A stretch of DNA of 5,655 nucleotides from a virus (taxonomy: Duplodnaviria > Heunggongvirae > Uroviricota > Caudoviricetes), in the IMG/VR virus record IMGVR_UViG_2609460219_000006; one strand, 5' to 3'. The notes beneath the pieces are model-generated. The model did no database searches. It was not told where the DNA came from and saw only the letters and a program-made list of their open reading frames with translations. Within the stretch, counting starts at the first letter, position 1. The number at the start of each line of letters is the position of its first letter. Shown one piece after another: positions 1-5,655 of the stretch. The position numbers were made by a program, and so were the translations under genes.

Positions 1-56
1 GCAATAATGTCGGCAACTTTGGCGGCTTCCTTTCCATTAACAAACTTTCGCAGTAA
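1..56 (+). CDS. L: 3' end of tail tip assembly protein L gene (partial; 5' end lies outside the window)
   Basis: The frame starting at nt 3 is open to a TAA at 54-56 (NNVGNFGGFLSINKLSQ*), 5 nt before the K start at 62. Placement follows the conserved lambda L-K-I-J order. The fragment is too short to confirm from sequence alone, and frame 1 is also open through this stretch. Confidence 0.4.
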   Translation, partial: NNVGNFGGFLSINKLSQ

Positions 57-61
57 ATCCC

Positions 62-805
62 ATGACAGAGACAGAATCAGCGATTCTGGCGCACGCCCGG
101 CGATGTGCGCCAGCGGAGTCGTGCGGCTTCGTGGTGAGAACGTCGGAAGGGGAAAGATATTTTCCCTGCGTGAATATCTCCGGTGAGCCGGAGGATTATT
201 TCCGGATGTCGCCGGAGGACTGGCTGCGGGCAGAGATGCAGGGTGAGATTGTGGCGCTGGTCCACAGTCATCCCGGTGGTCTGCCCTGGCTGAGTGAGGC
301 CGATCGGCGGCTGCAGGTGCAGAGTGATTTGCCGTGGTGGCTGGTCTGTCGGGGAGCGATTCACAAGTTCAGCTGTGTGCCGCATCTTACCGGACGGCGC
401 TTTGAGCACGGGGTGACGGACTGTTACACGCTGTTCCGGGATGCTTATCATCTGGCGGGGATTGAGATGCCGGATTTTCATCGCGGGGATGACTGGTGGC
501 GTCACGGTCAGAATCTCTATCTTGACAATATGGAGGCGACTGGTTTTTACCGTGTCGCACTGACAGAGGCGCAGCCTGGCGACGTGCTGCTGTGCTGCTT
601 TGGTTCATCGGTGCCGAATCATGCCGCCATTTACTGTGGTGACGGCGAGCTGCTGCACCATATTCCTGAACAACTGAGCAAACGAGAGAGGTATACCGAC
701 AAATGGCAGCGACGCACACACTCCCTCTGGCGTCACCGGGCATGGCGCGCATCTGCCTTTACGGGGATTTACAACGATTTGGCCGCCGCATCGACCTTCG
801 TGTGA
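62..805 (+). CDS. K: Tail tip assembly protein K: N-terminal JAB/MPN (JAMM) metalloprotease-like domain plus C-terminal NlpC/P60 cysteine peptidase domain
   Basis: 247-codon ORF. The JAMM motif H-x-H-x7-S-x2-D is readable as HSHPGGLPWLSEAD (nt 263-304), with Glu residues upstream. An NlpC/P60-like Cys-His-His triad is readable (Cys in TDCYTLF at nt 422-424, His in PNHAAIY, His in LLHHIP). The translation matches my recollection of lambda gpK. The classical 199-aa annotation corresponds to the internal ATG at 206, which has a GGAGG about 11 nt upstream; the ATG at 62 has no obvious Shine-Dalgarno but lies 5 nt after the L stop, suggesting translational coupling. The 3' end overlaps I by 103 nt in another frame. 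Confidence 0.85.
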   Translation: MTETESAILAHARRCAPAESCGFVVRTSEGERYFPCVNISGEPEDYFRMSPEDWLRAEMQGEIVALVHSHPGGLPWLSEADRRLQVQSDLPWWLVCRGAIHKFSCVPHLTGRRFEHGVTDCYTLFRDAYHLAGIEMPDFHRGDDWWRHGQNLYLDNMEATGFYRVALTEAQPGDVLLCCFGSSVPNHAAIYCGDGELLHHIPEQLSKRERYTDKWQRRTHSLWRHRAWRASAFTGIYNDLAAASTFV

Positions 806-1350
806 AAACGGGGGCCGAAGCCATCCGGGCGCTGGCCACGCAGCTTCCGTCGTTTCGCCAGAAACTGAATGAAGGCTGGTATCAGGTGCGCATTGCCGGG
901 CGTGATGCAGGCGAAAATGAATTATCTGCCCGTCTTAATGAGCCGCTGGCAAATGGTGCCGTGATCCACATTGTGCCGCGTCTGGCGGGAGCTAAAAGTG
1001 GCGGTGTTTTTCAGGCAGTGCTGGGTGCGGCGCTGATTGCGGTGGCATGGTGGAACCCTGTGGGCTGGCTGGGTGCCGCGGCTGTATCGGGCATGTATGC
1101 GGCAGGGGCCAGTATGATCCTGGGCGGTGTGGCTCAGATGCTGGCACCGAAAGCCAGAACTCCCCGCACACAGACAACGGATAACGGTAAGCAGAACACG
1201 TATTTCTCCTCACTGGATAACATGGTTGCCCAGGGCAATGTTCTGCCTGTTCTGTACGGGGAAATGCGCGTGGGGTCACGTGTGGTTTCTCAGGAGATCA
1301 GCACGGCAGACGAAGGGGATGGTGGTCAGGTTGTGGTGATTGGTCGCTGA
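703..1350 (+). CDS. I: Tail tip assembly protein I: N-terminal ubiquitin-like (beta-grasp) domain, then a Gly/Ala-rich hydrophobic segment and a conserved C-terminal region
   Basis: 215-codon ORF starting MAATHTLPLASPGMARICLYGDLQRFGRR and ending VSQEISTADEGDGGQVVVIGR, matching my recollection of lambda gpI at both ends. A purine-rich GAGAGAGG lies 11-18 nt upstream of the ATG. A Gly-Gly (nt 1000-1005) follows the predicted ubiquitin-like domain. The 5' end overlaps the K 3' end. Confidence 0.9.
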   Translation: MAATHTLPLASPGMARICLYGDLQRFGRRIDLRVKTGAEAIRALATQLPSFRQKLNEGWYQVRIAGRDAGENELSARLNEPLANGAVIHIVPRLAGAKSGGVFQAVLGAALIAVAWWNPVGWLGAAAVSGMYAAGASMILGGVAQMLAPKARTPRTQTTDNGKQNTYFSSLDNMVAQGNVLPVLYGEMRVGSRVVSQEISTADEGDGGQVVVIGR

Positions 1351-1367
1351 TGAAAAACGTTTATGTG

Positions 1368-1388
1368 AAACCGCCTCCGGGCGGTTTT
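1368..1388 (+). promoter_or_regulatory. I-J intergenic stem-loop (8-bp stem AAACCGCC / GGCGGTTT, 4-nt loop) followed by a short U-rich tract
   Basis: A perfect inverted repeat at 1368-1375 and 1380-1387 with loop TCCG, then TTTTGTCGTTT. It resembles a weak intrinsic terminator or RNA structural element between I and J. In a Q-antiterminated late operon it would be read through. It was identified by eye only. Confidence 0.3.
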
Positions 1389-1406
1389 GTCGTTTATGGA
1401 GCGTGA

Positions 1407-4808
<3,402 letters not shown>

Positions 4809-4826
4809 ATTTTATAACCCAGAACG

Positions 4827-4852
4827 GGCGTCAGAAATGACGCCTTTTTTAT
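4827..4852 (+). terminator. Rho-independent terminator downstream of J
   Basis: GGCGTCA (4827-4833), loop GAAA, TGACGCC (4838-4844): a perfect 7-bp GC-rich stem followed immediately by TTTTTTATT (4845-4853), 18 nt after the J stop. Confidence 0.7.
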
Positions 4853-4874
4853 TGCAGAAAAGCGAGAGGTAATT

Positions 4875-5473
4875 ATGCGTAAACTTTATGCCGCCATTTT
4901 GTCCGCAGCCATCTGTCTGGCCGTATCCGGTGCGCCTGCATGGGCGTCTGAACATCAGTCCACGCTGAGCGCGGGCTATCTTCATGCCTCGACGAACGTT
5001 CCCGGCAGCGATGATCTGAACGGGATTAACGTGAAATACCGTTATGAGTTTACGGACACACTGGGCTGGTGACGTCATTCAGCTATGCAGGAGACAAGAA
5101 TCGCCAGCTGACCCGTTACAGCGATACCCGCTGGCATGAAGATTCCTTGCGTAACCGCTGGTTCAGCGTGATGGCGGGGCCGTCTGTACGCGTGAATGAA
5201 TGGTTCAGCGCGTATGCGATGGCGGGTGTGGCTTACAGCCGTGTGTCGACTTTCACCGGGGATTATCTCCGCGTAACTGACAACAAGGGGAAAACGCACG
5301 ATGTGCTGACCGGAAGTGATGACGGTCGCCACAGCAACACGTCTCTGGCGTGGGGAGCTGGCGTGCAGTTTAACCCGACCGAATCGGTGGCCATTGATAT
5401 TGCTTATGAAGGCTCCGGCAGTGGTGACTGGCGCACTGACGGGTTCATCATGGGTGTCGGTTATAAATTCTGA
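4875..5473 (+). pseudogene. lom: lom, outer membrane beta-barrel protein of the Ail/Lom/OmpX/PagC family, disrupted by a 1-nt frameshift (or a sequencing error at a G run)
   Basis: ORF 4875-5072 encodes a Sec-type signal peptide (MRKLYAAILSAAICLAVSGAPAWA then SEHQ) and the first beta-strands, ending ...EFTDTLGW*. ORF 5069-5473 (GTG-initiated in the ORF track) continues the same protein in another frame (VTSFSYAGDKNRQLTRYSD...GFIMGVGYKF, with the C-terminal aromatic residue typical of outer membrane barrels). One extra G in the GGG run at 5063-5065 would restore a single frame reading ...TDTLGLVTSFSY.... GAGAGG lies 7 nt upstream of the ATG at 4875. Confidence 0.8.
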
Positions 5474-5500
5474 TTAGCCAGGTAACACAGTGTTATGACA

Positions 5501-5527
5501 GCCCGCCGGTTCAGGCGGGCTTTTTTG
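5501..5527 (+). terminator. Rho-independent terminator downstream of lom
   Basis: GCCCGCC (5501-5507), loop GGTTCA, GGCGGGC (5514-5520), then TTTTTTG (5521-5527), about 28 nt after the lom stop codon. Confidence 0.7.
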
Positions 5528-5537
5528 TGGGGTGAAT

Positions 5538-5655
5538 ATGGCAGTAAAGATTTCAGGTGTACTGAAAGACGGTGCAGGTAAACCGGTACAGAACTGCACA
5601 ATCCAGCTGAAAGCAAAACGTAACAGCACCACGGTGGTGGTGAACACGGTGGCAT
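5538..5655 (+). CDS. stf: Side tail fibre protein Stf, N-terminal 39 codons (partial; continues beyond the window)
   Basis: ATG at 5538 follows the lom terminator. The translation MAVKISGVLKDGAGKPVQNCTIQLKAKRNSTTVVVNTVA matches my recollection of the lambda Stf (orf-401) N-terminus and the lambda J-lom-stf order. The frame is open to the window end. Confidence 0.7.
   Translation, partial: MAVKISGVLKDGAGKPVQNCTIQLKAKRNSTTVVVNTVA

Follow-up and report, generated by a model that had tools for sequence, protein, structure and literature searches.

The window, by which we mean the entire stretch of 5,655 nt analyzed here, contains the distal tail module of a lambda-like Escherichia coli prophage, as is apparent from its open reading frames (ORFs) and from annotated relatives. 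The ORFs follow one another in the order K, I, J, lom, and stf, an arrangement that recurs in the annotated relatives and in many Stx and lambdoid phages. The features are the following:

62-805: K-like ORF (C40-family peptidase), 247 aa, assigned from the relatives' annotation at the matching place
703-1350: I-like ORF (tail assembly protein), 215 aa, assigned in the same way
1410-4808, + strand: J, the tail-tip or host-specificity gene, intact, 1132 aa, from the ORF list and from relatives annotated as gpJ there
4826-4855, + strand: terminator-like hairpin and T run in the J/lom interval, upstream boundary of the lom cassette, from a consensus scan
4864-4869, + strand: putative Shine-Dalgarno-like GAGAGG, 5 nt 5' of the lom ATG, read from the sequence
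4875-5072, + strand: lom 5' fragment, 64 native codons followed by a frameshifted Trp codon and TGA, from the ORF list and Pfam
5063-5065, + strand: GGG run, site of the one-base deletion, GGGG in relatives, from alignment with L001 and L002
5066-5473, + strand: lom 3' fragment in the -1 frame, with homology restarting at CTG 5066 and the listed ORF at GTG 5069, from the ORF list and Pfam
5070-5072, + strand: premature TGA, a product of the frameshift, from the sequence and the ORF list
5500-5531, + strand: terminator-like hairpin and T run 3' of lom, from a consensus scan
5539-5655, + strand: start of the side tail fiber gene (prophage tail fiber N-terminal domain), continuing beyond the window, from the sequence

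The gene starting at 5539 has its counterpart in coding sequences that begin at L001:6730 and L002:6730 and are annotated "prophage tail fiber N-terminal domain-containing protein." The hairpins, at 4826-4845 and 5500-5521 (4826-4855 and 5500-5531 with their T runs), bracket lom on the + strand, giving it the look of a moron-like cassette; the terminator call at 4826-4855 is a pattern match only, and termination there is a predicted function. A simple sigma-70 scan recovered no promoter for lom between J and lom. At the other end of the window, the K-like (62-805) and I-like (703-1350) ORFs overlap by 103 nt when the longest I ORF is taken, and the start of I is annotated differently in the two closest relatives (573 nt versus 648 nt). 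An open reading frame of 674 aa also runs antisense to J (2010-4034, minus strand); it carries no evidence of being a gene and is most likely a functionless antisense open frame.

The gene between J and the side tail fiber gene, lom, is split here because a run of four Gs has become one base shorter. Around the break the sequence is ACA CTG GGC TGG TGA, in which positions 5063-5065 form the G run and 5070-5072 the stop; at codons 63-64, CTG GGG CTG has changed to CTG GGC TGG TGA. A preliminary description, made from the letters of the window, had placed the ORFs 4875-5072 and 5069-5473 in different frames of a broken lom. Both ORFs are present, the second in the -1 frame, and the identity of the gene is borne out by Pfam Ail_Lom matches and by its place between J and the side tail fiber gene. 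The break had further been ascribed to a single-base loss in the G run, and the two closest relatives, E. coli 05-3629 and NIST0056, indeed carry GGGG where the window has GGG, all other positions being equal in an alignment of 142 columns. Adding one G yields a gene of 600 nt and 199 codons with the anticipated junction T-L-G-L-V-T-S-F, and this repaired gene is identical at 600/600 nt to the intact lom of E. coli 05-3629 (L001:6066-6665; WP_106916185.1). It had also been raised beforehand that full-length members of the family might truly stop here; the relatives, which encode contiguous 199-aa proteins, rule this out.

Across the window as a whole, the nearest relative is NIST0056, with 99.6% identity, 22 substitutions, and a single gap over 5,655 nt; this sole indel is the missing G at 5063-5065. 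There are five GGGG runs in the 600-nt lom gene, in which no run is longer than 4 bases. Besides the run at 5063-5065, a further 69 homopolymer runs in the window reach at least 4 bases (19 of them at least 5), and none of these differs in length from its equivalent in NIST0056.

The family assignment could be made separately for the two fragments. The 5' fragment (4875-5072) has an ATG start and encodes 65 aa, comprising a signal-peptide-like N-terminus and the first part of the barrel; this product matches the Pfam Ail_Lom profile (PF06316) over profile positions 1-64 (E = 4.5e-35, 121.6 bits), and the 134-aa product matches positions 66-199 (E = 9.8e-77, 257.6 bits), both scoring above the curated membership cut-off of 23 bits. 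The intact or repaired protein covers positions 1-199 with 396.9 bits. Because positions 1-64 and 66-199 are each accounted for, we regard the fragments as two halves of one gene rather than a chance pair of ORFs. The reading frame is not contiguous, being interrupted by the frameshift at 5063-5065 and the TGA at 5070-5072; hence, as written, the locus is an Ail/Lom pseudogene or contains a mis-called base, and is not a functional member of the family. Its flanks, J and the side tail fiber gene, show the synteny expected of a phage Lom when the ORF order is set beside annotated relatives. In the translations, an N-terminus MRKLYAAILSAAICLAVSGAPAWA/SE, signal-peptide-like by sequence, and a C-terminus GVGYKF are visible, and both can be aligned to lambda Lom and OmpX. 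In this alignment, the break coincides with the LG(L/V) motif, which directly follows the conserved INVKYRYE strand, presumably at the start of the third of eight strands, going by the known OmpX topology, which reportedly goes back to Vogt and Schulz in 1999.

Several parallels are offered by characterized members of this family. The closest is the E. coli Lom found in 05-3629 and NIST0056 (WP_106916185.1), an Ail/Lom outer membrane beta-barrel whose gene likewise lies between J and the side tail fiber gene, and from which the window copy differs in being short of one G at 5063-5065 and split into 65 + 134 codons. The preliminary description had called for alignment to lambda Lom, OmpX, and Ail, and significant matches were obtained to all three. 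Lom of bacteriophage lambda (206 aa; PDB 9wso chain C) is homologous over residues 11-199 and is the best structure match (E = 5e-50); its gene, too, lies between J and stf. The motifs INVKYRYE and AYEGSGSGDWRTDGFI(V/M)GVGYKF are common to lambda Lom and the window lom, whereas the window allele is divergent, with other loops and a length difference of 7 residues, and is frameshifted. The 9wso chain C entry is named "Outer membrane protein lom" of lambda, and this structure may bear on the binding partner of Lom. OmpX of E. coli (E = 1e-18) and Ail of Yersinia (E = 2e-17) are likewise significant chain matches, and with respect to the Ail, OmpX, and PagC-type eight-stranded barrels (PF06316 / PF13505), the two fragments together span the full Ail_Lom profile length. 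The genes of the latter type are chromosomal and intact, whereas the window lom is prophage-borne and broken.

The three-G allele is private to the window and absent from every collection that we searched. With an 81-nt query across the junction, 5,426 complete E. coli genomes yielded 3,083 records at 95 to 99% identity and none that matched exactly; among the matches listed (30), all were 98.8% identical and spanned 82 bases in the record, which indicates one gap. Because a single substitution would yield 98.8% identity with this query just as a single gap does, a 40-nt query was also run for which megablast seeds only where the three-G junction is present; neither these E. coli genomes nor 50,697 phage records contained a match to it. 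An exact 28-nt scan for the three-G junction likewise gave 0 hits in species-representative genomes, viral contigs, and metagenome contigs, as opposed to 1 species-representative locus, at least 120 viral contig loci, and 110 metagenome contig loci for the four-G junction. The five-G version had 0 matches in viral contigs. Exact-protein look-ups with the 65-aa and 134-aa fragments, a 100-aa alternative-start version, and J found none of them on record. The four-G allele, by comparison, is present in thousands of records.

The arrangement of the two ORFs raises the question of programmed -1 ribosomal frameshifting or another form of recoding that would join them into a full-length Lom. The downstream ORF is indeed in the -1 frame and shares bases with the stop of the upstream one, and a tRNA-Gly on GGC could in principle re-pair with the overlapping GGG. 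Nevertheless, we consider recoding extremely improbable. As the preliminary description had already remarked, a slippery heptamer is lacking at this point: no X XXY YYZ sequence occurs in the zero frame of ACA CTG GGC TGG TGA. The 70 nt downstream (5066-5135) fold with a predicted -19.3 kcal/mol, which is no better than shuffled sequences (z = -0.74), and a run of three Gs is far too short for transcriptional slippage. Further, the two-frame arrangement is not conserved, the three-G junction being found in no record of the collections searched and every relative examined having a contiguous gene with identical flanks. Programmed frameshifting was hence rejected on the combined lack of a heptamer, of significant downstream structure, and of any such split in the relatives.

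Disrupted copies of lom are encountered in public viral and metagenome contigs. Among the loci brought in by the four-G junction scans, 199 lom copies were full length, and 7 of these (3.5%) are disrupted (L120, L020, L223, L165, L160, L151, and L231). Trp-to-stop mutations account for three of the seven, and a +1 insertion at a G run near gene nt 479 for two; one copy has lost a G from another GGGG run, at gene nt 303-306, and the remaining one has a pair of compensating indels. The deletion at 5063-5065 is shared by none of them. These lom pseudogenes are comparable to the window copy as versions of the same gene with single small lesions, several at G runs, and differ from it in the sites affected. 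Small inactivating lesions of lom, several of them at G runs, are thus routine in public data, whether they arise by mutation or by error, and G runs recur as places of lesion or of error in the gene.

One possibility is phase variation, with the G run serving as a contingency tract through which Lom is turned on and off within the population. The five GGGG runs of lom and the indels at two other G runs in other contigs could be read in this way, and surface proteins, of which Lom is one, form a class that is often phase-variable. However, the homopolymer tracts of contingency loci typically have about 7 to 8 bases or more, as against three Gs here and four in the relatives. Neither a three-G allele elsewhere nor, in viral contigs, a five-G allele was found, the tract having four Gs in at least 120 viral contigs, in 110 metagenome contigs, and in thousands of E. 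coli records. Moreover, nonsense mutations make up three of the seven other disruptions, which points to general decay rather than tract-specific switching. We accordingly hold phase variation to be very unlikely, and it was rejected on the shortness of the tract and the lack of length polymorphism among the related sequences searched. An equally doubtful variant of this idea is that the five GGGG runs act as weak mutational hot spots that recurrently switch Lom off in lysogens, with the window representing an off-variant; were it true, the outcome would be low-level heterogeneity in adhesion or in the exclusion of related phages, as distinct from random decay or error.

The sole live question is therefore whether the deletion is real or an artefact of sequencing or assembly, a choice that the preliminary description had left open and that is weighed here from the sequence itself. 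Under the latter explanation, lom is in truth intact in the strain, with GGGG, and base-calling or consensus polishing lost one G. This is a serious contender, to which we would assign rather less than an even chance. The three-G allele is unique against thousands of lom copies, the rest of the gene is base-for-base equal to that of an intact relative, and the missing base belongs to a homopolymer; further, G-run indels account for part of the lom disruptions seen in other public contigs, and these may likewise be artefacts. Against an artefact, the window shows no other indel over 5,655 nt relative to its closest relative, and each of its 69 other homopolymer runs with at least four bases has the length seen in that relative, even where the run is longer and more prone to error; this speaks against systematic homopolymer errors in the assembly. 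A run of four bases is, moreover, short for an error of that kind, and, as read from the sequence, the site shares no base with a GATC or CCWGG methylation motif.

Taking these findings together, we lean, by a little more than an even chance, toward a true and recent deletion in this lysogen, arising by replication slippage, that renders lom null and leaves the tail genes unaffected. The frequency with which sporadic inactivation of lom occurs elsewhere (7/199 copies) is consistent with such an event, and the complete identity of the repaired gene to an intact copy implies that it would be very recent. Counting against it, the allele is a singleton, seen in no second record of the collections searched. 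The missing base, the uniqueness of the allele, the family assignment, and the lack of recoding signals are shown by the data; it is by inference that we favor a true mutation over a sequencing error, and the fate of the fragments and the phenotype outlined below have the same standing.

On a real deletion, replication slippage in this particular lysogen would have removed one G from the four-G run, and translation from the ATG at 4875 would end after 65 codons. The predicted product consists of the signal peptide and about 40 mature residues, corresponding to roughly the first two strands of the eight-stranded barrel, and would be unable to fold as an outer-membrane barrel. The remaining 134 codons would lie in the -1 frame, apparently with neither a signal peptide nor a recognizable ribosome-binding site before the GTG at 5069; hence, even if this part were translated, it would not be delivered to the outer membrane. 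We also considered a functional split barrel assembled from the two fragments and rejected it by inference, as the C-terminal fragment has no signal peptide and would have no access to the periplasm. From the sequence as written, then, no functional Lom is to be expected, and lom would amount to a null allele. With terminator-like hairpins on both sides, lom appears to be a separate cistron, and an effect on J or on the tail fiber gene is accordingly not expected.

The Lom of lambda is described as a prophage-expressed moron that is associated with the adherence of bacteria to human epithelial cells (PMC3594210, with reference to Vica Pacheco et al. 1997). Over-expression of the protein protected strongly against lambda-vir; from this, the authors of the study in question suggested that it acts in superinfection exclusion or prevents non-productive adsorption (bioRxiv 10.1101/2025.02.28.640651). 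Lom is described as a non-essential prophage moron, the loss of which would be tolerated (PMC3594210; bioRxiv 10.1101/2025.02.28.640651). If the deletion is real, the lysogen would lose the contribution of Lom to epithelial-cell adhesion and possibly, at high expression, to the exclusion of lambda-type phages.

At this locus, a well-known gene occupies its customary position in frameshifted form, and nothing here is new in kind; what is new is the private allele, its 100% identity to an intact copy after repair, and its standing as the sole indel relative to the nearest relative. For annotation, we suggest that lom be labeled as a frameshifted pseudogene or flagged for a possible sequence error, and that this prophage copy not be counted as the strain's supply of Lom. 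Were the deletion real, it would illustrate the decay of an accessory prophage gene beside intact tail genes and would provide a natural lom-null lysogen for comparison with isogenic lom-intact relatives in respect of adhesion or protection against lambda-type phages.

Two further observations concern the variation around lom. In the closest relatives, the tail fiber assembly genes 3' of stf, at a position outside the window, are annotated as incomplete or frameshifted pseudogenes (L001 10051-10176; L002 10177-10335 and 10940-11039), and this hints that decay of the prophage lineage has already set in at the distal end. Within J, a stretch of 190 nt (2628-2817) accounts for 17 of the 22 substitutions that distinguish the window from NIST0056, and the segment 2600-2850 is 99.6% identical to the J of other E. 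coli prophages; on this pattern, 2628-2817 has the appearance of a short mosaic patch produced by recombination within the host-specificity gene.
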